Shown here one piece after another: positions 4,723 to 60,380 of a DNA stretch of 64,000 nucleotides. Below the pieces are notes generated by a model, which worked only from the letters and a program-made list of their open reading frames with translations, was not told where the DNA came from and did no database searches. The stretch spans positions 8,549 through 72,548 of the forward strand of contig CAVWAL010000016.1 in the NCBI GenBank assembly GCA_963752935.1, read 5' to 3'. Position 1 is the stretch's first letter; each line of letters opens with the position of its first letter. Made by a program: the position numbers and the translations under genes. Origin of the DNA: an uncultured bacterium (lineage in GTDB: Bacteria > Chloroflexota > Anaerolineae > Caldilineales > Caldilineaceae).

Positions 4723-6572
4723 GGCTGCGCATCCGGTTTGAGGAAGGCACAGATCACGCGTACACGGTCCGATCCTTCGTTGATCAGCCGATAAGCGCCG
4801 GCGGCAGCGGGCACGACAAAGGTTTCAGCGTAGTTGAAGCGTTGGCGCCTGCCGCTCTCGGTCTCCAGGATCAACGACTGCCCTTCGACCAGGCTCATAA
4901 CGTGGGGCGATCCACTGGTTTCGGCCCTGATCTCATGCTCAAACTCGTAGCGACAGACGTCGTAGAAGTGGTCGGGGTGCGTAGGCAGATGGACAAGACG
5001 CCAGTCTTCCCCTTCGGCCAGGATTTCGGGTCGGCTGACCAGTTCGGCGCGCACACGCTCGCCCTTGCGCTCAAAGTTGAGGTTCTCGAAACCACGTTCC
5101 AAATTGATGGGACGCGGGTTGCCCTCCAGATCGAGGCGCATCCAGTCGTAGAGTTTGAAGGTAAAGATGTAGGGTGTGGCGCTGATTTCGAGGACAAGCA
5201 CGCCCTTGCCCGAACAATGAATGGTGCCGTGTGGGATGAGGAAAAGATCGTGCTTGTGCGCCGGTTCACTGTTGACGAAGCGGTCGGCGTCGATGGGTAC
5301 AGACTCAGTAAAGCTGCGTTCCAGTTCGGCGCGGAACCCGCTGGGGTCGATATTGTCCTGAAAGCCGAGGTAGACCTGAGATCCCGGCTCACAGTCGAGG
5401 ATGTAGTAGGTTTCATCCTGGGTAAAGCGCTCGCCGAAATGCCGGCGGATGTAGTCGGGCCGCGGGTGGACTTGCACCGACAGGTTCTGCCCGTCCACGG
5501 TGTCGAGGAAGTCGAAACGAATGGGGAATTCGTAGCCGAAGTGTGCGGCGCTGTCACCCAACACCTCCCGATGGTTGTGAAACATGAGAAAATCAAACGA
5601 GACTTCGAGCAGAACGCCGCCACTCTCGAAGACGATGCCGTTTTCGGGCACGATCAACTCGAACGACCAGGCGTAGTTGGGCACGTCCTGCGGCAATTGG
5701 GGAATGTGACGCTCGATCCAATGGCCGCCCCACACGCCCGGCTCAAACCAGGGGCGCACACGAAAGAAGTTTTGCGACATCTGGTCCAAACCGGCACGCA
5801 GATCGTCACCGGTCATCCACAGCGGATCGTCGGGGCGCTGACCGTCGATCACAATATCCACGTGCGAGAGCAGATGCGCCTTGTGGGCGTTGAGCGCGGG
5901 CCAGTCCACAAAATAGAAACGCTTGTACTGTGGCTTGGGTGAGATTGGTTTCGACGCGCCCAGGTTGTTCACCGTCCCGGCGCGGCTGCGAAATTGGAGT
6001 TCGTTCTTGGGCAGGTCGACGTAAAGGGTGAGACCATGCCAACCTGCCAGCGCTGCACCGCAGCCGTAGAGGATCGACATGTCCGCCTCGGGGTCGGGTG
6101 CCAACCCGGCCAACGCATCGAGATCGAAGAAATCGGCCAGCGTGCCGGTGAAGCGCGTGCCGAAGATGGGGTCATCGCCGCCCAGGAAGGGTTCGATCAT
6201 GGTTGCGATCTCGGCTTCAGGCTTCAGTGCCGGCGACACATCTACCCACGACACGACAAGTTCGCGGGCGCGCAGCGACGCATCCAACCGCTTCTGAAAA
6301 TCTGGCCAGAAGATGCCTTCAAAGCCGTCGATAATCACGGTGTTCTCCTGCATCAACCGCTTCGCCAGCGATCCAAAACCGATGTTGATTTTATTGGGGC
6401 CGATGTCGAAGCCAGGGTAAAGATCGTACTGTCCAGGCTCGGTCGGCGTGCGGGAAGCCGGCATGAGATTCTGGGTGGTCTTGCGCCAGTTAGGAGGGTT
6501 TGGCACGATGGAATCCTTATTGCGAATGGCGAACTGTGATCGGTCTGCCGTCGATGCGGGTTTGAACTGCAC
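4719..6572 (-). CDS. Class I mannose-6-phosphate isomerase-like cupin protein with a long N-terminal extension
   Basis: PMI-type motifs SVQVHPRPDY and LFLIPHGTIHCSG. The start is ambiguous: GTG 6572, GTG 6506 (preceded by AAGGA) or ATG 6464. The 5' end overlaps the tail of the GH38 ORF. Confidence 0.6.
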   Translation of the reverse strand: MQFKPASTADRSQFAIRNKDSIVPNPPNWRKTTQNLMPASRTPTEPGQYDLYPGFDIGPNKINIGFGSLAKRLMQENTVIIDGFEGIFWPDFQKRLDASLRARELVVSWVDVSPALKPEAEIATMIEPFLGGDDPIFGTRFTGTLADFFDLDALAGLAPDPEADMSILYGCGAALAGWHGLTLYVDLPKNELQFRSRAGTVNNLGASKPISPKPQYKRFYFVDWPALNAHKAHLLSHVDIVIDGQRPDDPLWMTGDDLRAGLDQMSQNFFRVRPWFEPGVWGGHWIERHIPQLPQDVPNYAWSFELIVPENGIVFESGGVLLEVSFDFLMFHNHREVLGDSAAHFGYEFPIRFDFLDTVDGQNLSVQVHPRPDYIRRHFGERFTQDETYYILDCEPGSQVYLGFQDNIDPSGFRAELERSFTESVPIDADRFVNSEPAHKHDLFLIPHGTIHCSGKGVLVLEISATPYIFTFKLYDWMRLDLEGNPRPINLERGFENLNFERKGERVRAELVSRPEILAEGEDWRLVHLPTHPDHFYDVCRYEFEHEIRAETSGSPHVMSLVEGQSLILETESGRRQRFNYAETFVVPAAAGAYRLINEGSDRVRVICAFLKPDAQP

Positions 6573-9370
6573 GTCTTCGTTTTCGTTGACAAAATCCTGT
6601 GCTTGAAAACAGTCTCTACGCTACGTGCAACGGTTAGCCGCACGACGGCGACACGCCGCGCGGGGACGACCACACTGGTGGCGCCGTTCTGCACGGGCAG
6701 GTCGGCGCCGGCGTTGCCGAAGAGATCGCACGATTGGGCCGCGCTGATTTGCAGGAGACCCGATCGAATCTGGGCCGGTTGATCGGCGTCGCTGGTGTTG
6801 TGCAAGCGAACGATGATCCCCTCCCCATCCGCCGCGGGCTTGACGTGGACGGCGACGATGGGCGCTTCGGGCAGGCGCAGCAGGGAACCACGCGACGGCA
6901 GTTCGGGCACGGCGATGGTCGGTTCGCCCAATGGCTGCACCACGGGATCGCTGTTGATGGCTTCCCAGCCCCAACGGTGGGCCTGCGCTTCGTCGAAGCC
7001 GCCGGCGTGGGGATGCAAGCGATAGCGGGCCGAGACGCGGCCCGGCTGGTGGGCGCGGAAGTTGGTTTCCCAATAGTTGTTGGTCACCCAGCCCAGCAGC
7101 ATTGCCCGTTCCGGTGCGCACGTGCTCTGGAAGTCGCCGAAGTGGAAGTCGCCCAGTTGCACCAGCGGGTTTTCGGGGATCGCCACCGTCATGCCGCGCT
7201 CGTCGTTAGAGAAGTCGACCCAGCCTTGCACGGTAAAGTAATCGCGGCAGGAGCCGGGCAACTGGTCCTCATGCGGGATCACGGGCTGGCCGCCCACATC
7301 GAAGCGGGCGGTGGCGCCGGGCACGTCGAAGGGGAAGAGCAGGTAGGTGGCGTCGGGGTGGCTGGAAAGGCCCATATCCCACCAAGATTCGCATTCGATC
7401 CAGTCGGCGTAGTGGGGCAAGAAGAGACGCTGCGTTAATTCACCCTCTATGCCCGCTGCGGTCAGGGTCTGGCGCACGACGATACCCAGCGGCGTGTGGA
7501 AGACGCGGTGGCTGCGCACTTCCCCGGCCTGTCGCCGGTTGGGGCGCCAATCCGGCTTCCACCCTGAACCCAGTTCGGCGCGCCTGGCCGACCACGAACG
7601 CTCGAAGAGGTTATTGCGCGGCCACTCGGCATCGTGATCCGCTACTTCCTCATGCACGAAGCTGTGCAGCGGATAGTCCGCCGTGGCGTCGACCCACTCG
7701 CAGTCGAGTTGCTTGTCAAAGAGCGAAACCACGCCGCCCCACTCACGATCAAAGGTGACGCGGAAGCGGTGATTTTCCACGCTGGCCGCTTCGCTCTGCT
7801 CGATGAAGGTATCGGGTTCGCCGCTATAGCGGGCCTGGAAGCCGCCACCGCCGGCTGCACTGCGTTCGGCAGCGTGCACAGCGTTCAGTTCGCTCTTTTT
7901 GACGACGGTATAGCCGTAGCCCGGCACTTCGGTGGGCGGCAGGATGTAGCGATCCTCTGGGCGCTGTACGAGTCGGGCCAGATCTTCCACATGACGGTGC
8001 AGCGTGTGCCGTCGATCCAGGTGGTGGCGACCGGCGGTGCCGTCCTCCACCTGTCCGCGCACATTGACCGACGCCGGCGGCAGCGGACCGGCAAGCGTGC
8101 GCGCCCATGGCAACGGGTTGAAGATGAGCACGTCGGCGTCGTCGTTGCGGGTGACGTAGCGGGCCAGTTCGGCCACACCGTCGCGCTGGAGAAGCAAGCT
8201 GAGGCTGCGGGCGTTGTAGGCGTACTGCGCCTTGTGGAACCACTGCGCCCAGGTGTCCTCGCCGTCGGGGATGCGTACGGCGGTGTCCGCACCCCAGGTG
8301 TGTTCGTCCCACAGGTTGAGGGCATCCCAGGCAGCTTCGCGGTATTTGGCGAAACTTTCCTGCGCCCATTGCGGACGGGTGACGGCCTCGGCTGGGGTAT
8401 CGTCTGCCAGGGCGTGGACGGCGGCGTGGAGGGCATCTGCGCTGCGCAGGCGGGCGCGGCTCTGGCGGTTGAGCGATTGCTCGCGCGCGCTGCTGATGGC
8501 GCCAAAATTCCAGAAGTCGGTCCAGTCGCCGCGCCAGAGGGGCAGATGATCTTCGTAGCGGCGCAGCGCCTGCCACCAGGTACGCGGCGTGCAGAAGATG
8601 ATGCGCGGCGTCTTGCCGGCGGCATTCCAGGCCTCGATGAAGGGTGTAAAGTCGAAGGCGCTGCCGTTGTCACCGAAGGGGTGGTAGCTCTGCAACATCA
8701 GAATCGGCAGCGGGTAGTCGATGCTGTCCAGGTGTTGCTGCACCAGCGACCACCATTCTTCCAGGTGAGCAGGGTCCTCGCGCCCGATGCCGAAGGTCCA
8801 ACCCTTGTCATAGGTCCAACCGTTGTAGGTGAGCAGGGTGCGTCCGCTGGGAGCCTGCCAGCGGAAAGGCATGGGCCGCGGCTTGAGCGGGCCGCCAAAA
8901 TGGTTGTTGATGGCCATGCTAAAGCCTTCGATGCCGGCGTCGAGCAGGGCGTCGACCACGGGCCAGTTCTCGCCGTTGACATCGCAGTTCATGGCGTGGC
9001 GGATGTCGAAGCCAAAGCGGCGGCGCAGACGGTCTACATTTTGCAGGCTTTCCACGACCTGATCGGTGTCATAGAGCGGCGTAATGTTGACGAGCATGCC
9101 GGTCACTTCGATGCGCCCGGCGCGCTCCATGGCCACAAAGCGATCGATCTCGGCGGGCGTGGCCTGATCGAGCCAGCGCATCAACGGCATCGTCGTCTCC
9201 ACCGTCCAATGGAAGGCGCCGTCGCCGTCTTGATCGGCGTACTTCTCGGCCAGGGCCAGGGCTTCGTCGATGAAACGCACGTACATGTCCCACACCACCG
9301 GCTGATCGTGGGTGTAGCCGACGTCGGTGTGGCTGTGGTGGATGAAGTAAACGGTATCGATGGCAGGCAT
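6353..9370 (-). CDS. Glycoside hydrolase family 38 alpha-mannosidase
   Basis: Start at MPAIDTVYFIHHSHTDVGYTHDQ (GH38 N-terminal metal-binding HxHxD motif) with RBS GAGGTG upstream. Length is about 1000 aa. The last ~90 codons look non-native and overlap the next gene. Confidence 0.8.
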   Translation of the reverse strand: MPAIDTVYFIHHSHTDVGYTHDQPVVWDMYVRFIDEALALAEKYADQDGDGAFHWTVETTMPLMRWLDQATPAEIDRFVAMERAGRIEVTGMLVNITPLYDTDQVVESLQNVDRLRRRFGFDIRHAMNCDVNGENWPVVDALLDAGIEGFSMAINNHFGGPLKPRPMPFRWQAPSGRTLLTYNGWTYDKGWTFGIGREDPAHLEEWWSLVQQHLDSIDYPLPILMLQSYHPFGDNGSAFDFTPFIEAWNAAGKTPRIIFCTPRTWWQALRRYEDHLPLWRGDWTDFWNFGAISSAREQSLNRQSRARLRSADALHAAVHALADDTPAEAVTRPQWAQESFAKYREAAWDALNLWDEHTWGADTAVRIPDGEDTWAQWFHKAQYAYNARSLSLLLQRDGVAELARYVTRNDDADVLIFNPLPWARTLAGPLPPASVNVRGQVEDGTAGRHHLDRRHTLHRHVEDLARLVQRPEDRYILPPTEVPGYGYTVVKKSELNAVHAAERSAAGGGGFQARYSGEPDTFIEQSEAASVENHRFRVTFDREWGGVVSLFDKQLDCEWVDATADYPLHSFVHEEVADHDAEWPRNNLFERSWSARRAELGSGWKPDWRPNRRQAGEVRSHRVFHTPLGIVVRQTLTAAGIEGELTQRLFLPHYADWIECESWWDMGLSSHPDATYLLFPFDVPGATARFDVGGQPVIPHEDQLPGSCRDYFTVQGWVDFSNDERGMTVAIPENPLVQLGDFHFGDFQSTCAPERAMLLGWVTNNYWETNFRAHQPGRVSARYRLHPHAGGFDEAQAHRWGWEAINSDPVVQPLGEPTIAVPELPSRGSLLRLPEAPIVAVHVKPAADGEGIIVRLHNTSDADQPAQIRSGLLQISAAQSCDLFGNAGADLPVQNGATSVVVPARRVAVVRLTVARSVETVFKHRILSTKTKTCSSNPHRRQTDHSSPFAIRIPSCQTLLTGARPPRISCRLPARRPSLDSTIFTLASTSAPIKSTSVLDRWRSG

Positions 9371-9466
9371 GGTCACCTCGGTCGATGGATAGTGAAGGGG
9401 TCGATGGAGGGGACTATAGCAGGGAGGGGAAGGATTGGGCAAACACGATTGGTCACCGCCGGTGAG

Positions 9467-9727
9467 CTACGGTAGTACGGTCCAGAAAGGCGTTCTGCAA
9501 CGGACATGAATCCGACGCAGGAAATTTATGCTCGAAGGGTCAGCCCTGCCGCCGAGTAGGTTCACTTCTTCCCCGACTCGCGCCAGCACGTTGCCTGTGG
9601 CGTTGACCACTTCGACAACGCCTTCACGCTGCACGAGTTCGGCGTCGGCCGGCCATAAAGGGACCATCCAACGGCAAGCCAAATTTGGAGAAAAGCACAG
9701 TGCTGCGACTAGACAGAACAAAGACAC
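9467..9727 (-). CDS. Possible small lipoprotein (hypothetical)
   Basis: 86 aa ORF with N-terminus MSLFCLVAALCFSPNLAC (lipobox-like L-A-C). No recognisable family and no clear RBS. Confidence 0.3.
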   Translation of the reverse strand: MSLFCLVAALCFSPNLACRWMVPLWPADAELVQREGVVEVVNATGNVLARVGEEVNLLGGRADPSSINFLRRIHVRCRTPFWTVLP

Positions 9728-9981
9728 AGCATTAACTGCGGAGTTCTGGGAATGGGGCGGTGTGAGGAGGCTGCGGTGAGATTCCCAGGGTCTCTTGGAA
9801 CCTAAGTTTAGGCTTCTGTCAGGTTCGGGGTCAACTGGTCAGGTGACCAGGGGGCGCATCCAAAATCTGTTGGCCGATGGCAAGTATCTGGCGCCGGCGT
9901 TGGATGCCTGCCCGCTGGCGGCACGCTCGCTTCCTCAATCCACGAATCACTCTCCTGACCGAGATTGATCGGTTGTCGTAC

Positions 9982-10048
9982 GGGTTTGGGTGGGGCGGCG
10001 GCTAGTTTCACCGGTAGGAGACGTCGGTTCTCCGCCCCACCCAAACCC
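9982..10048. repeat. Perfect 17-bp inverted repeat with a 33-nt spacer
   Basis: GGGTTTGGGTGGGGCGG (9982-9998) pairs with CCGCCCCACCCAAACCC (10032-10048). It is intergenic. Confidence 0.8.
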
Positions 10049-10175
10049 CTACCTCTCGCTCAACCTTCTACCATTTGAACAACAACTTTTGGATGCACCC
10101 GAGACCAGGGGAAGCGTGAACGGTGAATAGTGAAGGCGGGTTTTCCAAAGATTCAACCTTCACACCACCGCTTCG

Positions 10176-10204
10176 TTGACATCCGCTCTGATCTTCCATA
10201 AGAT
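10176..10204 (+). promoter_or_regulatory. Candidate sigma70-type promoter for the cyanophycinase-like gene
   Basis: TTGACA, a 17-nt spacer, then TAAGAT, about 85 nt upstream of the ATG at 10290. Confidence 0.4.
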
Positions 10205-10289
10205 GACGTCCAGAAGAGTTGACAGAATCAACCTCGCAACTTGTGCGTTTCGTTTTTCCGGCAAAGGCTAAGCCAAGGATCTCACACCG

Positions 10290-11189
10290 ATGCCTGCACC
10301 CGTCCCTGCCGGTTACACACGCGGCGCAATTCTGTTTCTTGGCGCCTGCCAGGACGAACGCGCCGAGGCCCATCTGCTGCAACGTTTCTGGGAAGAGGCG
10401 GGCGGCTACGGCACACGCGTGATCCTGATGCCGTTCGACGCCGGAAGCGCCGCCATCGCCCAACGCTTCGCCGCTCGCTTCACCGAATGGGAGTCGGATT
10501 CGGTGACGCAGATGCTGGTGGACAGCCGCGAAGCCGCGCTGCGCGCCACCAATCTGGAACGCATCGAGAGCGCTACCGCCATACTCTTGTTGGGCGACAA
10601 CCCGCTGCGCCTTGCCACCATCCTGGGCGGAACGCCGCTGGCGCAGAGCATTCGCCGCGCCAACGCCCGCGGCAAGATCATCGGCGGCCATGGACGCGCC
10701 GCCACGCTGCTGTGCGAGCACATGATCGCCTATGAAAGCGAACGCGAGGAAGAACGCCGCCCCCTGCTGGCGCGCCACCTGATCCACTTTGCGCCAGGGC
10801 TGGGCATCACCAACCGGCTCGTCCTCGACGTGACGCCTGCCGAGGCGGGCGCGGCCATGAACCGGCTGGCCCGTCTGCTCCACGCCGTGGCCTACAATCC
10901 GTTTCTCGTCGGCGTCGGCCTCGAAGTGGACACCGGCGCCGTGATCTACGCCGACAACACGCTGGAGATCTTCGGCGCCAACAGCGCCCTCATCGTCGAC
11001 GGCGCCAACGTCACCGAAACCGATGTCCACGAATACCGGCGCAGCACGCCGTTGAGCCTGATCGGTGCCCAGGTCCACGTGCTGGGGCCGACCTACATCT
11101 TTAACCTGCAAACGCGCAGCGGCCACGCACCAGAAACGAGCGATATCCCCGACCGTGCTGTACCTGACGAGACGGGCGAATGTATATAA
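10290..11189 (+). CDS. Cyanophycinase-like (peptidase S51 fold) protein lacking the nucleophile motif
   Basis: It aligns by eye to CphE: LLQRFWEEAGG, LLLGDNPLRL, MNRLARLLHAV and GVGLEVDTGA. The GxSAG serine motif is replaced by GGHGRAA (nt 10683-10703). Confidence 0.7.
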   Translation: MPAPVPAGYTRGAILFLGACQDERAEAHLLQRFWEEAGGYGTRVILMPFDAGSAAIAQRFAARFTEWESDSVTQMLVDSREAALRATNLERIESATAILLLGDNPLRLATILGGTPLAQSIRRANARGKIIGGHGRAATLLCEHMIAYESEREEERRPLLARHLIHFAPGLGITNRLVLDVTPAEAGAAMNRLARLLHAVAYNPFLVGVGLEVDTGAVIYADNTLEIFGANSALIVDGANVTETDVHEYRRSTPLSLIGAQVHVLGPTYIFNLQTRSGHAPETSDIPDRAVPDETGECI

Positions 11190-11279
11190 ACGCGGGATGA
11201 TGGGATAATGAAATGATGATCTACACGATCTCCCATCATCTCATTATCTCATCATCTTTTTTCTATAAAGGAGCCACCC

Positions 11280-12653
11280 TTGTCAACGATGACACCTCTC
11301 ACCACCTCCACTCTCAGTGGTATCGAGATCCACGGTCCTCTGCCCGGCCCCAAAGCAGCCGCCTATATTGAACGCGATGAAAAAGTCACCAGCAATTGTC
11401 TGGGCCGCGTCTACCCGCTGGTGCCGGAGCGAGGCGAAGGGTGCTGGATCACCGATGTGGACGGCAATCGCTTCCTCGACTTCTTTGCCGGCATCGCCGT
11501 CTGCGCCACAGGGCACAGTCACCCTGCCGTGGTCAAGGCCGTGCAAGAGCAAGCGGCGCGCCTGATCCACGCCGGCGGTAGCGACGTTTACAGCCCCGGC
11601 TATGCCGAATTGTGCGAAAAGCTGGTTTCGCTGGCACCACAGGGCAGCTACACCGGCGATTGGCAGGTCTTCTTGACCAATAGCGGCACCGAGGCCGTGG
11701 AAGGTGCGCTCAAGTTGGCGCGCTACCATACAGGTCGCCAGCGAGTGATCGGCTTCTTGGGCGGCTTCCACGGGCGCAGCATGGGCGCACTGAGCGTAAC
11801 GGCCAGCAAGGCGATTCAACGCCGCGGCTTTGGTCCACTGCTCAGTGGGGTTAGCCATCTGCGCTTCCCCAACCGCAGCCACTGCCCGCCCGGTGTAGAA
11901 GAGTTCACCTGGGGCCGTGAGATGGCGCAGCGTCAGTTCGACGAGATCTTCACCACCACCACGCCCGCCGAAGAGGTGTCCGCCGTTATCGTCGAGCCGA
12001 TCCAGGGCGAAGGCGGCTACATCGTTCCACCGGATGGCTTCTTGCAGGCGATCCGCGAGATCTGCGACCAACACGGCATCGTCTTTATTGTGGACGAGGT
12101 GCAGACCGGCTTCGGGCGCACCGGCAAGACCTTCGCCATCGAACACTGGAATGTGCAGCCCGATGTGATCTGCATGGCCAAGGGGATCTCCAGCGGCGTG
12201 CCCATAGGCGGCTTCATGGCCCGGGCGGAGATGATGACATGGCCGCCCGCTGCGCACGGCAGCACCTGGGGTGGAAGCCCGATTGGCTGCGCCGCGGCGC
12301 TGGCCAATATCCACGTCATTGAGGACGAGCACCTGATGGCAAACGCTGTCGAGCAGGGCGACTACCTGATGGAACGCTTCCGCTCGCTACAAGATGAGTG
12401 CGATCTCCTCGTCGACGTGCGCGGTATCGGGCTCATGATCGGGCTGGAGTTAAGCCCCAACGTCAAAGCCTTCGAGTGGATGGAACGCTGCTTCCAACGA
12501 GGGTTGCTCACCCTGACGGCGGGGATCAACAACATCCGCCTCTGTCCGCCACTGATCCTCAGCCGCGAGGAGGCCGAACTGGGCTTCCAGGTATTGCGTG
12601 AGGTGTTGCTAGAGATGGCGCAGATGCAGCAAGTGGAAGTTGTGGGGGGGTAA
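11280..12653 (+). CDS. Class III PLP-dependent aminotransferase (4-aminobutyrate/acetylornithine aminotransferase family)
   Basis: DEVQTGFGRTGKTFA and CMAKGISSG (PLP Lys) motifs. RBS AGGAG lies 7 nt before TTG 11280 (alternative ATG 11289). Confidence 0.85.
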   Translation: MSTMTPLTTSTLSGIEIHGPLPGPKAAAYIERDEKVTSNCLGRVYPLVPERGEGCWITDVDGNRFLDFFAGIAVCATGHSHPAVVKAVQEQAARLIHAGGSDVYSPGYAELCEKLVSLAPQGSYTGDWQVFLTNSGTEAVEGALKLARYHTGRQRVIGFLGGFHGRSMGALSVTASKAIQRRGFGPLLSGVSHLRFPNRSHCPPGVEEFTWGREMAQRQFDEIFTTTTPAEEVSAVIVEPIQGEGGYIVPPDGFLQAIREICDQHGIVFIVDEVQTGFGRTGKTFAIEHWNVQPDVICMAKGISSGVPIGGFMARAEMMTWPPAAHGSTWGGSPIGCAAALANIHVIEDEHLMANAVEQGDYLMERFRSLQDECDLLVDVRGIGLMIGLELSPNVKAFEWMERCFQRGLLTLTAGINNIRLCPPLILSREEAELGFQVLREVLLEMAQMQQVEVVGG

Positions 12654-12759
12654 CAAATGGATGTTTTCTCCCCAATCAATCGGCGTTGAGGATGATACAG
12701 TATAGAAGAGTTGTGCTTTCAAACGCGTCTTCAACGAAACTCTTTTGTAAAGGAATTTT

Positions 12760-13986
12760 ATGTTACAGCAAGTTATGAACTGGCAACGGAGTAATCCGTA
12801 TCCGCTTTACTGGATGTTACGGCGGGTGAAGCCGCTGCTCAACATTGGGCGCTACGATCTCTGGTTCGCCACCAAATATGACGATGTCAAGCGTGTACTG
12901 TCAGACTACGAATACTTTTCGTCAGATTTCCGCCGTGCGTTCGGCAATGCCGAGCTTGATCGCAGCAGCAAGATCAGTCTGATCGCGTCGGATCCACCGA
13001 TCCATACCAAGCTGCGCGGACTGGTCACCCGTGCCTTTACGCCACGGGCCGTGTCCAATCTTGAAGGACGCATCGCTGAACTGACCCACGAAATCATCCA
13101 TCCCCTGCGCCAGGATGGGCACATGGATCTGATCAACGACCTGGCCTATCCGCTGCCGGTGATGGTGATCGCCGAGATGTTGGGCGTCCCCGCCAAGGAC
13201 CGCGCCGATTTCAAGATCTGGTCGGAGGCATTGGTAAAATCGGCGGATCAGATTTTTGCCGAGAGAGAAGAGATGAGTGAGGCCGAACGCCAGGCCCGGG
13301 CAGATCTGCCGCCCACGCTGGTGGGTGGGATGGGGCCATATTTCAAAGAGATCATCGCCCAGCGCCGCGCCGATCCCAAGGACGACCTGATCAGCGTGCT
13401 GGTGGCGGCAGAACTCGACGGCGAAAAACTCAGCGAGTGGGATCTGCTGGACTTTTGTAGCCTGCTGCTGGTGGCGGGCAATGTGACGACGACCAACCTG
13501 ATCGGCAACGCCGTGAGGTGCTTCCTCGACCACCCTGCAGCGCTGGCCGCCGTACGCCAGGATCGCTCCCTGCTGCCCGGCGCCATCGAGGAAGTGCTGC
13601 GCTACCGCTCGCCCGTGCAGTTCATGTTCCGCATCTCAACCAAAGAGACCGAACTCGGCGGGCGCCTGCTCCCGGTCAATCAACGCGTCATCGCGCTGAT
13701 CGGCTCGGCCAACCGCGACGAAAGCAAGTTCCCCGATGCCAACCGCTTCGACATCCACCGCAGCCCCAATCCGCACATTGCCTTTGGGCACGGCGTCCAC
13801 TACTGCCTGGGCGCACCCTTGGCGCGACTCGAAGCCAAGATCGTCCTCAGTATTATGCTGGATGAATTGCAGGACTGGCAACGCATTGGCCGCGGATCTC
13901 TGCCGCCGGGTGACAGCGTGATCCTCAACGGCGTGAAGACGCTGCCGCTTGGGTTCAAGACGACGCAGATGCGGGTGGCAGCGTAG
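12760..13986 (+). CDS. Cytochrome P450
   Basis: Heme-binding loop FGHGVHYCLGAPLARLE, ExxR motif EEVLRYRSP, and I-helix LLVAGNVTTT. Confidence 0.9.
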   Translation: MLQQVMNWQRSNPYPLYWMLRRVKPLLNIGRYDLWFATKYDDVKRVLSDYEYFSSDFRRAFGNAELDRSSKISLIASDPPIHTKLRGLVTRAFTPRAVSNLEGRIAELTHEIIHPLRQDGHMDLINDLAYPLPVMVIAEMLGVPAKDRADFKIWSEALVKSADQIFAEREEMSEAERQARADLPPTLVGGMGPYFKEIIAQRRADPKDDLISVLVAAELDGEKLSEWDLLDFCSLLLVAGNVTTTNLIGNAVRCFLDHPAALAAVRQDRSLLPGAIEEVLRYRSPVQFMFRISTKETELGGRLLPVNQRVIALIGSANRDESKFPDANRFDIHRSPNPHIAFGHGVHYCLGAPLARLEAKIVLSIMLDELQDWQRIGRGSLPPGDSVILNGVKTLPLGFKTTQMRVAA

Positions 13987-14011
13987 TGATGCGTCAAGCG
14001 TGATGTGATCG

Positions 14012-14071
14012 GTAGGGGCGCTGCTTGCTGCGCCCGCACAGTGTGCCGGGCGCAGCAAGCAGCGCCCCTAC
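14012..14071. repeat. Perfect 25-bp stem / 10-nt loop palindrome (GTAGGGG...CCCCTAC type)
   Basis: GTAGGGGCGCTGCTTGCTGCGCCCG (14012-14036) pairs with CGGGCGCAGCAAGCAGCGCCCCTAC (14047-14071), 26 nt after the P450 stop. There is no T-tract. Confidence 0.85.
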
Positions 14072-14134
14072 GGAATTGTCATCACTTGACCGTTGACACG
14101 ATAGTAGTAGGTCGTGCGTGATGCGTAAGATTGT

Positions 14135-14177
14135 GTTACACGATCTGACTCCCAAAGCCAGCGTCAGATCGTGTAAC
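14135..14177. repeat. Perfect 15-bp stem hairpin
   Basis: GTTACACGATCTGAC (14135-14149) pairs with GTCAGATCGTGTAAC (14163-14177) around a 13-nt loop. Confidence 0.8.
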
Positions 14178-14211
14178 GCGACCAGTGCCCCCTGGTACAT
14201 CGCACGTTTTC

Positions 14212-14220
14212 TGCTATACT
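14212..14220 (+). promoter_or_regulatory. Extended -10 element TGCTATACT
   Basis: TGnTATACT lies about 46 nt upstream of the TTG start at 14267. Confidence 0.4.
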
Positions 14221-14266
14221 TGAATCAAATCCTCCGCCGGCAATTGTTTAGCAACGGGGTGAGCAC

Positions 14267-14647
14267 TTGAGTACAGAGACAGCACCAGAAACGCCGAACT
14301 TCTCCCATCCTCTAGAAGAGGAGTTCGCCCGTATCCTCGATTTTTACGGCATCGAATGGGAATACGAACCGCACACTTTCCCCCTGGAATGGGACGCCGA
14401 AGGCAATGTCAGCGTCGCTTTCTCGCCAGATTTCTACATGCCCGACCAGGATCTCTACGTCGAACTGACCACGTTACGCCCCAAGTTGATCCGCCATAAG
14501 AACCGCAAACTGCGCCGCATGGCCGAACTCTATCCTCACATCAACGTCAAGCTCTTTAAACGCAAAGATCTGCGCGATATGATGGTCAAGTACGGCGTCG
14601 ACCACCACGCCGAGCCGATCATGGGCACCGATGCACAAGATGAGTAA
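14267..14647 (+). CDS. Hypothetical protein, possible PD-(D/E)XK-like nuclease fold
   Basis: 126 aa ORF with a TTG start. The FSPDFYMPDQDLYVELTT segment resembles the D...E-x-(K/T) core of restriction-endonuclease-like folds. This is a pattern-level call only. Confidence 0.45.
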   Translation: MSTETAPETPNFSHPLEEEFARILDFYGIEWEYEPHTFPLEWDAEGNVSVAFSPDFYMPDQDLYVELTTLRPKLIRHKNRKLRRMAELYPHINVKLFKRKDLRDMMVKYGVDHHAEPIMGTDAQDE

Positions 14648-14776
14648 CCAACTGTAGGTAGCCACCTGCAACTAGAAAGAAAATTGTTCCGACTCCACAA
14701 CCGCCCACACCACACAACCTCTTCCCCTTGTTGGTGGATCTGAGTGGTCTTCAATAAAGCGCGTTTGATTGAAGTT

Positions 14777-15421
14777 TTACGAAAGATTGTTCTCCCCAAT
14801 CAACGTCTGCCAGTGGAACCAATCCTCTGCAGAATCCAAATCTAGCGCCAGTGCCGTTGACCTGATCTCGTGGATGGTGAGGTCGGCCGCTTTGGCGCGC
14901 TCGATGTGGCGCTGCCGGCTCTGTGGACCGTAGGCGAAGTCGATGGCATAGGCAGGGCGCAACAGGAGGGCGTTGGTACCGCCGTCACGGCTGCCGGCAA
15001 GCACGATGCAGCGATCATGGAGATTGCCGAGGTGGATCATTTCCCCAATGTCGTGGACGGTGAGTAGAGGCAGGTCGGCAGGCAGGATGAGGATGGCATC
15101 GGCGCCACGCTCTACGGCGACGGTGCGCGCCTGGTTCAGAGCGTTGTTGAGCGCAGCTTCGGGATCGGGAAGAGCAGGATCGGTAGGGATCGCAGCTTCG
15201 GGCAGCGTCGACGCCCCACCGGCTCGTGCCAGCGTCAAGACTTCTTCGTCGCGGCTGATGGCGATGATTCCCGCCAGATCCTCGACGGCGGCGACAGTCT
15301 TCAATGTCTGCAACAACAATCGCCGCGCCAACTCTCTCCTCTCCTGCGCGGACAGCAACGAGGCCAACCGGCTTTTGCCCAATGAAAGGGGTTTAACGGG
15401 CACGATCAGCCAGAGTTGCAT
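14777..15421 (-). CDS. cofC: 2-phospho-L-lactate / phosphoenolpyruvate guanylyltransferase (CofC/FbiD)
   Basis: N-terminal LIVPVKPLSLGKSRL, ILPADLPLL and SRDGGTNALL motifs. Its ATG overlaps the cofD stop (TAATG). Confidence 0.85.
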   Translation of the reverse strand: MQLWLIVPVKPLSLGKSRLASLLSAQERRELARRLLLQTLKTVAAVEDLAGIIAISRDEEVLTLARAGGASTLPEAAIPTDPALPDPEAALNNALNQARTVAVERGADAILILPADLPLLTVHDIGEMIHLGNLHDRCIVLAGSRDGGTNALLLRPAYAIDFAYGPQSRQRHIERAKAADLTIHEIRSTALALDLDSAEDWFHWQTLIGENNLS

Positions 15422-16414
15422 TAGCGAGCGGACGAGGGGTCGACGGATGAAATGGTGCTGTTAGACTGAGTGACAAGCCCAAAGTCGACGACGGCGCGGG
15501 CCAATCTAGCTTTGCTGTGGATGTCGTGCATGATGGTGTCGGTAACGAGGGCAGGGAGGATCACAGCGTCGCTGAGGTCGGCGTCCTGGCTGTCGAGGAC
15601 GAAACCGTCCAGCAGGTCGCCCAGGTGGTCAACGACGGTAAGCGGGCTAATCATTTCGCCGAGTTCCTGCATCATCTTGGCGGCAGGGCCTTTGATCGCC
15701 TGACCGCTGACGATGGGGCTGACGGCAATTTTAGGCGCTTTGGCTTGGCGCAACCGCTCCCGCAACCCCGGCACCGCCAGGATCTGGATCGATGCTGACG
15801 TAGGGGTTGCTGGGGCAGAAAACAATCAGATCGGCGCGCTCTATGGCGCGTTTGATGTCATTGGTCAGCTTCGCTCGTTCGGCGCCCAGGAAGGTGAGAT
15901 CGATGAGAGTGGGCTCACAGCGACGGCGCACGAAGTAATGCTGAAAGGGAAGATCCCCTTCGTCTGTGTGGACAAGGGTGCGCACAGGTTCGTTGGCCAT
16001 GGGCAGGATCAGCGATGGTACGCCCAACATTCGGCGCAGACGGTCGGCCACATCACTGAGCGGTACACCCTGGCGCAGCCATTCGGTACGGCGCAGATGT
16101 AAAGCCAGATCTTTATCACCGATGCGGAACCAGTCTTCGCCGCCGTACCGTTCCATCTCGGTAAGGACATTGAACTCCTCATTGGCGCGGCCCCAGCCGT
16201 AGTCGGGGTTGCTGACGTCAGCCAAATTGTAAAGGACGGTATCGAGATCGGGGCAGATGTGCAGCCCCCAATGCTCGAAATCGTCGCCGGTGTTGACGAT
16301 AACCGTCAGCGCGCCCGGTTCCAGGATCTGCTGAAGACCCATCGCCAGCTTGGCTCCGCCCACGCCACCGGCGAGGGCCACCACTCGAATCTGCGACAAT
16401 TGGGGAGAGGTCAT
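15421..16414 (-). pseudogene. cofD: 2-phospho-L-lactate transferase CofD/FbiA interrupted by a 1-nt frameshift
   Basis: The N-terminal ORF 15731-16414 (VVALAGGVGGAKLA...CPSNPYVSID) and the C-terminal ORF 15421-15825 (..ILAVPGLRERL..SPIVSG) are in different frames. Removing one base near 15784 restores SNPYVSIDPILAVPG. Confidence 0.8.
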
Positions 16415-16542
16415 GTCCTATCCTTTGAATAATAGTCCGAACACCCAGGAAGCCAACTTAAAGGCGCAACCGTGTAGAGGTGCAAAGCTACACTGCTAAC
16501 AACCCGTTGCACCTCTGCATCCTGGCGGCCTTGTGTGAACGG

Positions 16543-30808: not shown

Positions 30809-30823
30809 AGATTCGGGGAATAC

Positions 30824-30861
30824 AAAAAGCGCAACGATCAGCGCTGATCGTTGCGCTTTTT
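30824..30861. terminator. Bidirectional rho-independent terminator
   Basis: AGCGCAACGATCAGC / GCTGATCGTTGCGCT is a perfect palindrome flanked by A5 and T5. It ends the SPFH operon. Confidence 0.85.
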
Positions 30862-30879
30862 GGCTTGAGAGAGGGAAGG

Positions 30880-33293: not shown

Positions 33294-35255
33294 TCATCCA
33301 AATCCACCACCGCCGCCACCGCCACCGCCGCCGCCCCCACCACCGCCGCCAGAGAAGCCGCCGCCACCGCTCCAGCCGCCACCGCTCGACGATGAACTGG
33401 CCGGGCGACTGGTCATGGTGGCGCTGGCACTGTTGAGCATGGCGCCCAATCCGGCGCTCATCCCGGCCAGACTGCTGCCCATGCCGCGGCTGGCGCTGCT
33501 CAATCCACCGCCCAGGCTGCCGCCTTCACCGGCGCCGCCCATAAAGTCACCCATTCCACCGCCTGTCGACGTGGCGATAGGACCAGTGCCATAGTAGCGC
33601 TGTCGGTACGGGCCGTAGAGCGTGGGGTTAGGGATGTACCAGCCCGGCGCAGGGGCGTCGATGCGCTCAAACTTGGCCAGATATTGTTTCTCGACGCCAA
33701 AGGCAATGGCATAAGGAAGCCAGCGATCCCAGATCGTCTTCTGCTGTTCCAGATCGCTGTAGCGATCGATATCGGCCAGATACCGCTTAAAGGCTTCCCA
33801 CCGTGCTGCGGCCTCAGATCCTTGATCGGTCTTGCGCGGCATGTAGCGCGACAACAGAAGGAACCCCAACGCCGTAACGCCCAGGCCGAACCCTGGTAGA
33901 AAGGCAGCAGCCGTCAGTTCGCCAAACATCCCCAACAGGACAACACCCGCCACCACGGCCAGGATCAGAAGGATAACGCCCAGACACCCATACTGGTTGC
34001 GCACATTTTCGGGATTGCGAGCGAAGAACCCCTCTTCGGTGACCGCGTTGTACAGCGCCGTCTTGATCTTGGGGATCTTTTCGTAGAACTTGTTCTTGAG
34101 ATCCGACAGCTCCACCTCCTCTTTGCCGCCAAAGACGCTATCCAGGACCAACTTTTCATAGGCGCGCATGGGGACACCTTCATTTTCGCGCCGATAGATA
34201 AAGTCTGTTGACGTCGTCAAAAAGCCGCTCTTCTTCACCTCGGTGATGCTAATCGCCTTGCGCCGTGCCAGATCGACCAGCGTCGCCACAATGTCCTGCA
34301 TGTCGGCCTGTTCATCGAGGAGCGTCCCCACGAGGCCGGGCGGCAGATCATCAGGCGGCTCGGGCAAATAATCGGCCACAACGTCCACCGGTTTATCGCG
34401 ACCGAGTCGATCCCAAAGCAGATAGAGCAACGCCGGTCCACCCAGCAGGAAGAGAGCGCCCAGTGCGCCCAATCCAACCGTCGCAATCGGAGCCCACCTT
34501 TGCTGATACGCCTGCGCCGCTTCGCGTTCGGCCACTACTTGATCGGCCTGCACCTGCCAGGGTTGAGCCGAACCGGCCACCACCCCAGGGGCAAACTCGA
34601 CCCGCACTTCAAATTCTTCGCCCGCTTGCAAGCGTCGATCCAGATCAAACAGGACAGATCTCTGCCCTTCGAGCACTGTCGCTGTGGCGGAATCGCGCGC
34701 GTCACGCTCGTTGATATAGGCGGCCCATTCCTGGATCGGGGCCGGTGTTTCCACCGTCACGCGTCCTTCAAGCACGGGAAAGCTGCGATCCCCATAGATC
34801 GCCTTCCACCATACTTGATCCCCACCCTCGTAGAAACGTATGCCGCCGTGAACGCGGTAGCTGAGCGTATAGGTTTCCGTCTCGTTGCGCATGGGGGGGA
34901 AGTACCAGCGGATCACATAACTTGAGCCCTCTTCGTCGACCGTGAAGGTGTAGGGCGATCCGCTGCCGCTGACCAGCTCATAGCGGTTGCCGCTTGAGTC
35001 GGTTACGGCCCAGTCATCGATGTAATTATAAAAACGTATAGGGATATCTCGATAACCGAAGGTGAATTCACCATCGGTGAAACGAATCTGCTGGTGTTCA
35101 GCGACATCGAACGTACCGTCTGTGTTGACAAGGATGTCCACATCAAAGCGGTCCCACACCAGGGACTTTTCCTGAGCCTGGATCGCCAGTGGCATCAATA
35201 TCACACAGAGCAGTGCGATGAGCCAGGGCAATTGACGACGCACAAGCAACTTCAT
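33294..35255 (-). CDS. DUF2207-family membrane protein with a poly-Gly C-terminal tail
   Basis: Signal peptide [31 protein letters not shown]2207-like ectodomain, several TM helices, and the tail [33 protein letters not shown]. Confidence 0.75.
33297..33383 (-). repeat. Low-complexity (GGN)n tract encoding the poly-Gly tail
   Basis: 16 consecutive Gly codons at 33303-33350 plus flanking GGGG/GGG blocks. The + strand poly-Pro ORF 33250-33594 is its shadow. Confidence 0.9.
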
Positions 35256-35386
35256 GGTAGCCTCGTTTCAGGAATCATTCGATAGGGTAAGCCAATATAG
35301 CAAGAATAGTATGCTCTAGCCGCAAGCGATCCACCTGACATTCTATCAACAATTTACCTGACCTTCAACACAGCCGCAGCGTCAGG

Positions 35387-35541
35387 GTGTGTCCCATATT
35401 AATTATTAGGGGGTCCGTATCTTCCGGGAAGCCACGACGGATGGACACGGAGGTCCATCCCTACGTGTAGGGACCGGCCTCCGTGCCGGTCCGTTCTGCG
35501 TAGCTGCCCTGAAGATCAGAACCGAAATACTTGGGACGCAC
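35387..35541 (-). mobile_element. MITE-like element, one-unit copy (inverted relative to the 59.7 kb copy)
   Basis: It has the same arms and the same double-hairpin core as 59654-60108. The termini are GTGTGTCCCA...TGGGACGCAC. It sits between the DUF2207 operon and rsfS. Confidence 0.6.
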
Positions 35542-58550: not shown

Positions 58551-58600
58551 GTCCAAAACGAAACCGGCGAGCCAGATGGCTCGCCGGTTTCGTTTTGGAC
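58551..58600. terminator. Perfect 23-bp stem bidirectional terminator between tatC and nfo
   Basis: GTCCAAAACGAAACCGGCGAGCC - AGAT - GGCTCGCCGGTTTCGTTTTGGAC. Confidence 0.8.
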
Positions 58601-59531: not shown

Positions 59532-59653
59532 GGTGACTCCCATCTTTCGTGCGAATAGATCGTGGCAGAAATTACAACATTGTTCTACTGTCTCGTTGCC
59601 GGTTGATTGTACTGCACAAGCTACGGGCGCGCCTAACCGTCCGCGCCGGTAGG

Positions 59654-60108
59654 GTGCGTCCCAAGTGTTTCGGTTCTGATCTTCCGGGCAGCCTGCAGAA
59701 CGGACCGGCACGGAGGCCGGTCCCTACACGTAGGGATGGACCTCCGTGTCCATCCGTGATCGTCCACCAACCCGAAACGGACCGGCACGGAGGCCGGTCC
59801 CTACCGTAGGGATGGACCTCCGTGTCCATCCGTGATCGTCCACCGACCCAGAACGGACCGGCACGGAGGCCGGTCCCTACCGTAGGGATGGACCTCCGTG
59901 TCCATCCGTGATCGTCCACCAACCCGAAACGGACCGGCACGGAGGCCGGTCCCTACACGTAGGGATGGACCTCCGTGTCCATCCGTGATCGTCCACCAAC
60001 CCGAAACGGACCGGCACGGAGGCCGGTCCCTACCGTAGGGATGGACCTCCGTGTCCATCCGTCGTGGCTTCCCGGTAGACATGGACCACCCAATACTATG
60101 GGACACAC
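59654..60108 (+). mobile_element. MITE-like element carrying a tandem double-hairpin array
   Basis: Imperfect terminal inverted repeats GTGCGTCCCA / TGGGACACAC. The arms are shared with the 35387-35541 copy. It is bracketed by the 16-nt direct repeat CCGCGCCGGTAGGGTG (59641-59656 and 60109-60124). Confidence 0.6.
59701..60062. repeat. Tandem repeat, 5 units of 76/77 nt (last unit lacks the linker)
   Basis: Units start at 59701, 59778, 59854, 59930 and 60007. Each unit contains GGACCGGCACGGAGGCCGGTCC and GGATGGACCTCCGTGTCCATCC hairpins. Confidence 0.95.
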
Positions 60109-60380
60109 CCGCGCCGGTAGGGTGTGTGGACACTTCCCAGTGTCACGGGTTGTGTCTACCCTATGTAAGCGCAAATGTAACGGTTATTCATGGCATTTGT
60201 GCACAGTTCTGGTATAATTGAGAGTGGTTGTGCGCTCCATGCCCTACGTATCCTGGTGTGGGCGTGTTCGCCAGACAAAGAGCGCTGTAACCGTGAATGC
60301 ATTTTGCAGTGGCAAGCAGCTTCCGTAGCTTGTTTTGTCGCTGTCCACGATAGATTCAACCTAGTGTAAGGAGATTTTCC

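Follow-up and report, generated by a model that had tools for sequence, protein, structure and literature searches.

What is the repeated, palindromic DNA that separates two divergent genes in this genome, one encoding an nfo-type endonuclease (AP_endonuc_2) and the other a class II aldolase: a new RNA switch, a mobile element or a repeat of a known kind? In the window (the whole 64-kb stretch of DNA analysed here), the element at 59641-60124 probably consists of pairs of GTAG-tagged REPs in a BIME-2-like tandem, and is best understood as selfish, non-autonomous DNA whose single-stranded hairpins would be processed by a REP-associated Y1/HUH transposase (RAYT, also called TnpA-REP). In kind, the array is ordinary, junk-like bacterial DNA and not a new RNA switch. 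The features on which this reading is based, numbered from the start of the window, are as follows.

59641..59656: left 16-nt direct repeat, CCGCGCCGGTAGGGTG, exact copy
59652..59700: left arm, starting with a 12-nt terminal inverted repeat, GGGTGCGTCCCA (59652-59663)
59701..59777: unit 1 (77 nt); REP-A, minus strand, 59702-59727; spacer AC (2 nt); REP-B, plus strand, 59730-59755; linker of ~20 nt
59778..59853: unit 2 (76 nt); REP-A, minus strand, 59779-59804; 1-nt spacer; REP-B, plus strand, 59806-59831; variant linker CCGACCCAGAA
59854..59929: unit 3 (76 nt); REP-A, minus strand, 59855-59880; REP-B, plus strand, 59882-59907
59930..60006: unit 4 (77 nt); REP-A, minus strand, 59931-59956; REP-B, plus strand, 59959-59984
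60007..60062: unit 5, core without linker; REP-A, minus strand, 60008-60033; REP-B, plus strand, 60035-60060
60063..60110: right arm, ending with a 12-nt terminal inverted repeat, TGGGACACACCC (60099-60110)
60109..60124: right 16-nt direct repeat, a perfect match to the left copy
60190..60218: promoter-like site of the aldolase gene, plus strand, downstream of the array
35385..35541: second composite copy with one REP pair, inverted (minus strand); REPs at 35439-35464 (minus) and 35467-35492 (plus)

The first-pass annotation had described five tandem units with periods of 77, 76, 76 and 77 nt, and this was borne out almost to the base, except that only four of the units are complete and the fifth is a core from which the linker is missing. 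The array occupies 59701-60062, and Tandem Repeats Finder reported it as a single array (59699-60062; period 76, 4.8 copies, 96% matches, score 689). Alignment of the five units gave 57 invariant core columns. The units differ from one another only in the junction, where there is either one nucleotide or two (C or AC), and at three positions of the linker in unit 2. A block is repeated within the array, 59699-59833 being 100% identical to 59928-60062, and 12 half-unit matches were observed against 0.56 expected. The linkers, of about 20 nt, are nearly identical to one another; they could not be derived from the arms, to which their similarity was at chance level (p about 0.56 for linker versus right arm).

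Each module comprises 26 nt: a 5'-GTAG, an 8-bp stem (GGACCGGC or GGATGGAC), the loop CTCCGT and the return stem. All 12 modules in the window, which lie at two intergenic loci, read GTAG followed by a perfect 8-bp stem and CTCCGT on their own strand. The two hairpins, the CCCTAC-N(1-2)-GTAGGG junction and the complementary loops match the first description exactly. Hairpins A and B are one module in opposite orientations, only 1-2 nt separating the two GTAG feet, and their stems differ at three positions, all of which are compensated. Complementarity of the A and B loops is consequently a by-product of an inverted pair: both hairpins read GTAGGG-stem-CTCCGT-stem from 5' to 3', and placing the same module on opposite strands makes the loops complementary automatically. 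It is therefore no evidence for the switch-like or kissing-loop design that had been proposed. Nor did the view that the element is not a recognisable REP hold, as the module has the defining anatomy of GTAG-tagged REPs (PMC3733652) and the array resembles BIME-2 (PMC3333891). Identity as a GTAG-tagged REP follows from the unpaired GTAG with an 8-bp stem and 6-nt loop, the tail-to-tail heterodimers and the reiteration in tandem. A second type of GTAG-REP is found at 14009-14074 of the window, indicating that the source genome hosts GTAG repeats.

Single modules fold as single-stranded DNA at -7.4 and -9.9 kcal/mol. For one pair as single-stranded DNA, the two-hairpin form (-17.1 kcal/mol) and one long hairpin (-19.8 kcal/mol) are nearly equal in energy, and folding of the whole element gave z-scores of -13.5 and -9.7.

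The inverted copy with a single unit reported elsewhere in the window is present at 35385-35541, between divergent DUF2207 and rsfS genes. Unit number in this genome is thus five at one locus and one at the other. The core of copy 2 is 100% identical to that of copy 1, the arms are ~90% identical, and the one-unit copy as a whole forms a single imperfect palindrome of ~155 nt. Each ~47-nt arm is an imperfect inverted repeat of the other (score 38 in local alignment, equalled in 0 of 2000 shuffles), and the right arm holds a decayed REP-B-like half, GTAGACATGGACCACC, which matches at 13 of 16 positions. The terminal inverted repeat GGGTG(C/T)GTCCCA occurs at both ends of copy 1 (11 of 12 positions match) and at one end of copy 2; its extent is better taken as 12 nt than as first drawn. 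The arms and the bracketing 16-nt direct repeat were both confirmed. Of the left direct repeat, the first 11 nt are outside the element; with a 12-nt inverted repeat this number falls to 9 (GCGCCGGTA). The outer, GCGCCGGTA-containing part is a candidate target-site duplication. The 16-nt repeat has three matches in the window (as many were found in 0 of 100 shuffles), the third being a similar site with two mismatches at 5970-5985.

Comparison with a relative (L007) shows the same nfo/aldolase pair separated by a 336-nt spacer without the element, compared with 849 nt here. The aldolase promoter-like site is conserved in this relative and, as it is downstream of the array, the array is placed upstream of the promoter and outside the leader. 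Both copies are upstream of the -35 elements of divergent promoter-like sites, copy 2 by 14-20 nt from the -35 hexamers, and no terminator-like site was found at the two loci. Since both copies are therefore outside any transcribed leader, a role for the element as RNA is unlikely, as judged from its position in the sequence. ORFs of 73-122 aa that run through the array had been dismissed as genes, rightly so, as they have no Pfam match and the translated array has no homologue among 5.8 billion proteins; a protein-coding repeat was rejected on these results and on a period that is not a multiple of 3. The absence of an Rfam family also held, with 0 matches at gathering thresholds and only sub-threshold microRNA/sRNA noise at E ≤ 10. 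Thus, the account of a non-coding, dispersed, modular element with inverted arms is upheld. Two further candidates were rejected: a CRISPR array, as the repeats are without unique spacers and are separated by almost invariant linkers, and plasmid iterons or a replication origin, which are disfavoured by the chromosomal housekeeping context and by the second copy elsewhere.

Related repeats were sought in public data with the foot and loop fixed and the stem positions free, the 3' stem arms being outside the search pattern. The identical foot and loop with other stems were found in MAGs of Fimbriiglobus (Gemmataceae), in an Acidobacteriota MAG and in metagenome contigs. The 3' stem arms of these matches pair even though they were absent from the search pattern: across eight variants 98.4% of cells pair, and four of the eight pairs change on both sides. 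When partner columns were slid as a control, at most 53% were paired. In these other phyla the related pairs are located either behind stop codons or where two genes converge. The genome scan revealed no close relative within the Chloroflexota that carries exactly this REP, and the exact A/B junction had no match in the metagenome scan. With the general pattern, only Gemmataceae-type pairs were found in metagenomes and there was no match in viral contigs; a blastn search of the one-unit copy against plasmids also gave no match. Contigs of the Fimbriiglobus MAGs contain fold-back artefacts, apparently caused by the related palindromic pairs.

A covariance model was built from the variant sequences, with the REPs of RAYT genes kept out of its building. 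It matches in-frame REPs inside three RAYT-like genes, L012 (45.7 bits), L013 and L014 (both 35.2 bits), where they are located between the HUH and Tyr motifs. These REPs share the build of GTAG, 8-bp stem and 6-nt loop, and in L012 the loop sequence, too, is CTCCGT. Among protein families, the RAYT-like proteins match the NCBIfam model for the REP-associated tyrosine transposase best (E 2.6e-11 to 5.4e-17), and three of the four proteins also reach the cut-off of Pfam Y1_Tnp. L012, L013 and L014 come from organisms other than the source of the window.

How then should the element be explained? A structured ncRNA or tandem riboswitch-like switch, in which the A and B hairpins alternate with a long A:B helix, might be suggested by two alternative folds of similar energy and by the very low folding z-scores. 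We regard it as extremely unlikely: there is no Rfam match at either gathering or permissive thresholds, the element lies upstream of promoter-like sites without a terminator-like site, it is symmetric and so has no preferred strand, the inverted pair fully accounts for the loop complementarity, and the homologous intergenic region of L007 does without it. The palindromes could instead be host regulatory DNA that binds a dimeric protein or extrudes cruciforms, buffering transcription-induced supercoiling or coupling the two promoters. The position of both copies between divergent promoter-like sites and the strong folding of the whole element agree with this, as does the finding that in Escherichia coli REPs and BIMEs serve as topological insulators and are bound by IHF, gyrase and Pol I (PMC3333891). 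However, the gene pairs at the two loci (nfo/aldolase and DUF2207/rsfS) have no relation to each other, L007 regulates the same nfo/aldolase pair without the element, related REP pairs in other phyla have the positions given above, no regulator gene is adjacent and the loci differ in unit number, making a regulatory role very unlikely.

More can be said for the composite of arms and core as a true MITE, either derived from or hitch-hiking on an IS with GGGTGYGTCCCA ends, mobilized in trans by a DDE transposase and causing a duplication of ~9 bp. The units would then be an internal variable-number module, like boxB in the pneumococcal BOX, and their REP-like form would be incidental or captured. 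The terminal inverted repeats, the inverted repetition of the arms over ~45 nt and the empty site in L007 all point this way. In copy 1 the ends abut a perfect direct repeat, of which 9 nt are outside the inverted repeat and 16 nt are present in all, and the arm-unit(n)-arm build parallels the A-B(n)-C build of BOX, which also has terminal inverted repeats and target duplications (PMC3049150). The MITE label used by the first-pass annotation is thus supported by the inverted repeats and the perfect direct repeat of copy 1, and less clearly by copy 2. There, the flanking 9-mers match at 6 of 9 positions if a 2-nt insertion at the left end is assumed and at 2 of 9 otherwise, and the chance estimate for the match with the shifted boundary is weak (roughly p 0.02-0.1). 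Furthermore, the 16-nt repeat overlaps the inverted repeat by 5 nt, as target duplications seldom do, and no IS with matching ends is present in the window, nor is there a plasmid match. The REP core (100%) is better conserved than the ends (about 90%), although a transposase that acts on the ends would lead one to expect the opposite, and the cores are members of a GTAG-REP family that spans phyla and is linked to RAYT genes. A MITE is a rather unlikely explanation overall, but it is the main rival for how the whole composite moves.

Processing of REP pairs by a RAYT, the reading that we favour, would proceed as follows if E. coli is a guide. When the DNA becomes single-stranded, for example on the lagging-strand template, each module would form a hairpin with GTAG at its 5' foot. 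By analogy, a RAYT encoded elsewhere in the genome would bind the hairpin, cut C/T (slashes mark the cut) within the CTAC of the inverted partner and in the linkers, and then rejoin the strands. Such cutting and rejoining could carry pairs to new sites and add units. Unit number may also change when replication slips on the near-identical 76-nt units or when these recombine unequally. For the host, the result would be selfish or neutral DNA parked between divergent promoters; cruciform extrusion that absorbs negative supercoils between the divergent genes, or protein binding, would be secondary and hypothetical.

Several observations count against the REP-RAYT reading. Six-frame motif scans of the window and the REP-bearing loci detected no RAYT/IS200 signatures and no RAYT-like ORF, and only two loci were seen. 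Together, the perfect direct repeat around copy 1 (16 nt) and the terminal inverted repeats (12 nt each) resemble the footprint of a DDE transposase. To our knowledge, such a footprint of inverted repeats with a direct repeat is not expected from Y1 transposases. A mismatch in the stem is required by E. coli TnpA-REP (PMC3333891), but the stems here have none. Both copies are flanked by divergent genes, a setting unlike the convergent or co-directional one in which most REPs are found (PMC3733652).

REP-RAYT systems described so far are vertically inherited. A bolder reading is that the element is a hybrid, in which a DDE-type carrier with terminal inverted repeats and a target duplication moves RAYT substrates and two unrelated transposition systems cooperate, and that the REP family marks a horizontally spreading REP-RAYT system. 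The family in question, GTAGGG...CTCCGT, is common to Chloroflexota, Planctomycetota and Acidobacteriota as well as to the coding sequence of a RAYT gene itself. We consider this proposal distinctly unlikely.

Nearly all work on REPs, BIMEs and REPINs has been done in Proteobacteria. This example from a Caldilineae-like member of the Chloroflexota extends the known range of the REP repeat type and combines two compensated stem variants, BIME-2-like tandem amplification and conserved palindromic arms. Its 56-nt core is a compact substrate for testing hairpin recognition by RAYTs outside Proteobacteria. For annotation, ORFs through such arrays should not be called genes, and short-read assembly of MAGs probably collapses arrays of this kind or gets their size wrong. 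The array opens no new biological question.

Among known systems, the pneumococcal BOX (Croucher et al. 2011, PMC3049150) is similar in its arm-unit(n)-arm build with a variable central tandem module, its terminal inverted repeats and flanking duplications, its intergenic location and its ORFs open on both strands. BOX is, however, unrelated in sequence and host, boxB has no GTAG hairpin pair and BOX is often transcribed. REPINs (Bertels and Rainey 2011, PMC3116915), regarded as the unit that a single-copy RAYT mobilizes, likewise have two inverted REPs that together make one long hairpin; a REPIN has its conserved REPs on either side of a central spacer, whereas here they are central and the arms are less conserved. 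Genes of tnpA-REP subclass 2.4 carry in-frame REP insertions (Quentin et al. 2018, PMC6006769), and on the basis of the same feature, the internal in-frame REPs, the proteins encoded by L012, L013 and L014 may be assigned to this subclass.

In E. coli, BIME-2 is a tandem array built from two types of REP, y and z2; TnpA-REP binds GTAG and the hairpin, cuts the inverted REP at CC/TAC and brings about BIME amplification (Ton-Hoang et al. 2012, PMC3333891). The array described here likewise has two alternating REP types in tandem with a short inner spacer and a second linker, near-identical copies within a locus, a copy number that differs between loci and a cleavage-type motif in the inverted partner (every unit carries CC/CTAC). 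It has no sequence homology to the enterobacterial y and z REPs, its loop is different and its stems are perfect, so it is an analogue and not a homologue; conserved inverted arms and a flanking direct repeat are not BIME features.

The closest likeness is to the GTAG-tagged REPs (Di Nocera, De Gregorio and Rocco 2013, PMC3733652), which have a defined anatomy, form head-to-head and tail-to-tail dimers, including heterodimers, and are found in Chloroflexi and Planctomycetes. Their dimers can reiterate in tandem with flanking DNA or sit in longer palindromes, GTAG-23 repeats are clustered in Thermomicrobium roseum (Chloroflexi) and tail-to-tail dimers spaced by 1-2 bp occur in Opitutus terrae (PMC3733652). 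Common to both are an unpaired GTAG at the foot of a short GC-rich stem-loop, subfamilies defined by complementary stem changes, an 8-bp stem (family range 5-13 bp) and a module length within 20-40 nt. Also shared are tail-to-tail heterodimers whose GTAG feet face inwards, their tandem reiteration along with adjoining DNA and their setting within a longer palindrome, as is occurrence in Chloroflexi and the PVC group (Planctomycetes-Verrucomicrobia-Chlamydiae). The CTCCGT loop and these stems are assigned here at the level of the superfamily, of which 24 families have been published; the host is Caldilineae-like, and location of both copies between divergent genes is the rarer position. What is new is this Chloroflexota example, GTAG-tagged REPs as a kind being already known, including in Chloroflexi.

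Tandem Repeats Finder returned one strong array at 59699-60062 (period 76, 4.8 copies, 96% matches, score 689) and, with an alignment of the five units proposed in the first-pass annotation, bore out the presence of five cores, each consisting of hairpin A, a junction and hairpin B. In that alignment 57 core columns are invariant. The units differ in the junction spacer, which is 1 nt (C) or 2 nt (AC), in three linker positions that deviate in unit 2 only, and in the lack of a linker in the fifth unit, so that the array comprises four full units and one core. Positions 59699-59833 and 59928-60062 are 100% identical at an offset of 229 nt (three units), which fits a recent block duplication. 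Chance is ruled out as an explanation of the repeats, since the half-unit pattern was matched 12 times versus 0.56 expected.

Hairpins A and B, each read on its own strand, are one 26-nt module consisting, 5' to 3', of GTAG, an 8-bp stem (GGACCGGC or GGATGGAC), the loop CTCCGT and the return stem. The GTAG feet face one another with 1-2 nt between them, which produces the palindromic junction CCCTAC-N-GTAGGG. As one module is placed on each strand, the loops of A and B are automatically reverse-complementary, and the switch or kissing-loop design once read into this complementarity is dropped. The three differences between the A and B stems are each compensated inside their own hairpin; thus, the pair is a heterodimer. 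Folded as single-stranded DNA, two separate hairpins (-17.1 kcal/mol) and one long hairpin (-19.8 kcal/mol) are close, while RNA favours the long hairpin (-39.9 versus -31.2 kcal/mol for two hairpins).

The array (copy 1) lies within arms and flanking repeats, and a second copy is present in the window. The direct repeat bracketing the element and the inverted single-unit copy were both recovered as first described; the inverted repeats at the arm ends are present and are better taken as 12 nt:

59641-59656 and 60109-60124: 16-nt direct repeat CCGCGCCGGTAGGGTG, exact
59652-59663, 60099-60110 and again 35385-35396: 12-nt terminal inverted repeat, GGGTG(C/T)GTCCCA
35385-35541, inverted: copy 2, one unit, core identical to that of copy 1, arms ~90% identical

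The genes on either side of copy 1 encode an AP endonuclease of the nfo type and a class II aldolase; those beside copy 2 encode RsfS and a DUF2207 protein. ORFs that span the array had been dismissed as genes, rightly: they have no Pfam match, and the translated array found nothing among 5.8 billion proteins. The best named homologues of the aldolase are in Caldilineaceae and Litorilinea, which places the host among Caldilineae-like Chloroflexota. A relative (L007, 84% aldolase identity) has the identical divergent nfo/aldolase arrangement with a spacer of 336 nt (849 nt in the window) that contains no REP (repetitive extragenic palindrome), indicating that the element is an insertion or a lineage-specific gain. 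Its place is taken in L007 by a CT-rich (TCTTCC)-like microsatellite (L007 5770-5830), and the aldolase -35/-10 site is kept.

GTAG-tagged REPs are defined as short stem-loops that have a 5-13 bp stem and one end marked by an unpaired GTAG, and their subfamilies are set apart by complementary stem changes (PMC3733652). The window module has the unpaired GTAG, a stem within this range and compensated stem variants; the earlier view that no recognisable repeat class applies therefore does not hold. Tail-to-tail dimers with the GTAG feet inside, at times merely 1-2 bp apart, heterodimers, dimers repeated tandemly together with adjoining sequence and dimers within longer palindromes are all on record, and GTAG repeats are known in Planctomycetes and Chloroflexi (Thermomicrobium roseum, clustered in blocks) (PMC3733652).

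One genome per species was scanned with a pattern that left the five inner stem positions free. Three Fimbriiglobus MAGs (Planctomycetota) and an Acidobacteriota MAG share the foot and loop of the window module, with stems GGGCCGCC, GGGCGGCC or GGGTGGCC; a metagenome scan added three matches of the Gemmataceae type. The 3' stem arms, which lay outside the search pattern, do pair (98.4% of cells across eight variants, against ≤ 53% when partner columns were slid), and both sides are altered in four of the eight stem pairs. The pairs in these genomes directly follow a stop codon or separate convergent genes, the usual REP position. Two REP-bearing MAG contigs (L004 4120-4240 and L005 5990-6108) are mirror-imaged about the REP pair, their flanks being reverse-complementary over tens of bases; the palindrome probably seeded a fold-back artefact during assembly. 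L005 also has a ~97-nt tandem duplication (2593-2800) with a Gemmataceae-type REP at the start of each copy; this is a small case of a REP duplicated along with flanking DNA.

Neither the window nor the REP-bearing loci contain an ORF resembling a REP-associated Y1 transposase (RAYT, TnpA-REP). A Roseiflexus RAYT-like protein printed in PMC3733652, used as query, retrieved a large family of ~200-aa proteins. Four were scanned, and their top family match was the NCBIfam "REP-associated tyrosine transposase" (E 2.6e-11 to 5.4e-17), with scores under the curated cut-off, as the domain is interrupted by an insertion. This insertion (VGAGPRACP...GQPQGVAPT in most of the 120 retrieved members) separates the HUH and Tyr motifs and, as DNA, is a pair of REPs, each with GTAG, an 8-bp stem and a 6-nt loop. 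In-frame GTAG REPs are present inside three RAYT-like (PF01797 / NF047646) genes:

L012, 578-693: insert GTAGGGGCGGCCCTCCGTGGCCGCCC, loop CTCCGT, identical to that of the window modules
L013, 10286-10356
L014, 10034-10412

A covariance model trained only on window, Gemmataceae and Acidobacteriota modules scored these independent REPs at 45.7, 35.2 and 35.2 bits (E 1e-8 to 5e-6). In-frame REP insertion is a hallmark of tnpA-REP subclass 2.4 (PMC6006769), with which the three genes agree. Structurally, the window modules therefore fall within a REP type linked to a RAYT clade. The L013 gene lies within a type I restriction-modification operon (6883-16423; hsdM, RhuM-like gene, RAYT-like gene, hsdS, with hsdR further on).

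A RAYT-processed REP cluster is the leading explanation and a probable one. Three features resemble a DDE-transposase footprint, which would not be anticipated of a Y1 enzyme. The terminal inverted repeats measure 12 nt, the inverted arms are long (~45 nt, imperfect; score 38, equalled by 0 of 2000 shuffles), and copy 1 is bracketed by a perfect repeat of 16 nt altogether, with 9 nt beyond the inverted repeat. The composite as a MITE moved by a DDE-type mechanism ranks second, but is unlikely. Conservation is highest in the REP core rather than at the ends, the 16-nt repeat overlaps the inverted repeat, and no IS with matching ends was seen in the window. Copy 2 lends the MITE reading weak support, as its flank bases agree at 6/9 if the left end has a 2-nt insertion and otherwise at 2/9. 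Furthermore, the right arm holds a decayed REP-B-like half (GTAGACATGGACCACC; 13/16 positions, p ~0.009), a hint that the arms themselves are old REP material. Immediately to the right of the element, the native flank at 60117-60165 (GTAGGGTGTGTGGACACTTCCCAGTGTCAC...GTCTACC) carries a GTAG foot ahead of a bulged 7-bp hairpin and is similar to the end of the element itself (GGGTGTGT); copy 1 may have inserted into what was itself decayed REP-like sequence.

Host regulatory DNA is an improbable reading, and a structured RNA more improbable still. Both copies lie upstream of promoter-like sites of the adjoining divergent genes, neither has a terminator-like site, and Rfam gave no match at either of two thresholds, in line with the first-pass annotation; together these argue against an RNA role.

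Other repeats occur in the window. A second GTAG-REP type forms a head-to-head dimer at 14009-14074, directly downstream of the cytochrome P450 gene at 12760-13986. The dimer consists of two inverted GTAGGGGCGCTGCTTGCTGCGCCC copies with GTAG feet outside (10-nt spacer, 9-bp stem with a T-T mismatch), and its match to the REP model is weak (16 bits, E ~0.08). An intergenic 21-nt inverted repeat (9978-10052; GTACGGGTTTGGGTGGGGCGG ... CCGCCCCACCCAAACCCCTAC, 33-nt spacer) has GTA(C/G)GGG at its outer ends and may be another GTAG-footed palindrome family. A perfect palindrome at 58551-58600 (24-nt arms, 2-nt gap) is probably a bidirectional terminator, as it lies between convergent tatC and nfo; another, with 20-nt arms and no gap, is at 30823-30862. 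A CCG/CCA-rich short tandem repeat (33304-33385) was rejected as a separate element, being low-complexity sequence on the minus strand that codes for the poly-Gly tail at the C-terminus of the DUF2207 protein.

In the element, GTAG-type REP pairs form a BIME-2-like tandem cluster enclosed by palindromic arms. The element is non-coding, modular, dispersed and inserted, as originally proposed, and a known repeat class fits it with no need of a switch; it adds a REP-pair cluster to Chloroflexota, where few have been described so far. The array has the architecture of E. coli BIME-2, in which two REP types alternate in orientation in tandem, separated by a short inner spacer and by a second linker, and whose copies are near-identical within a locus and differ in number among loci and strains (PMC3333891). 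The E. coli TnpA-REP binds GTAG and its hairpin as single-stranded DNA, cuts at C|T both in the inverted partner's CTAC and in linkers, and can add BIME units via strand transfer (PMC3333891). Every window unit carries CC|CTAC beside a GTAG hairpin.
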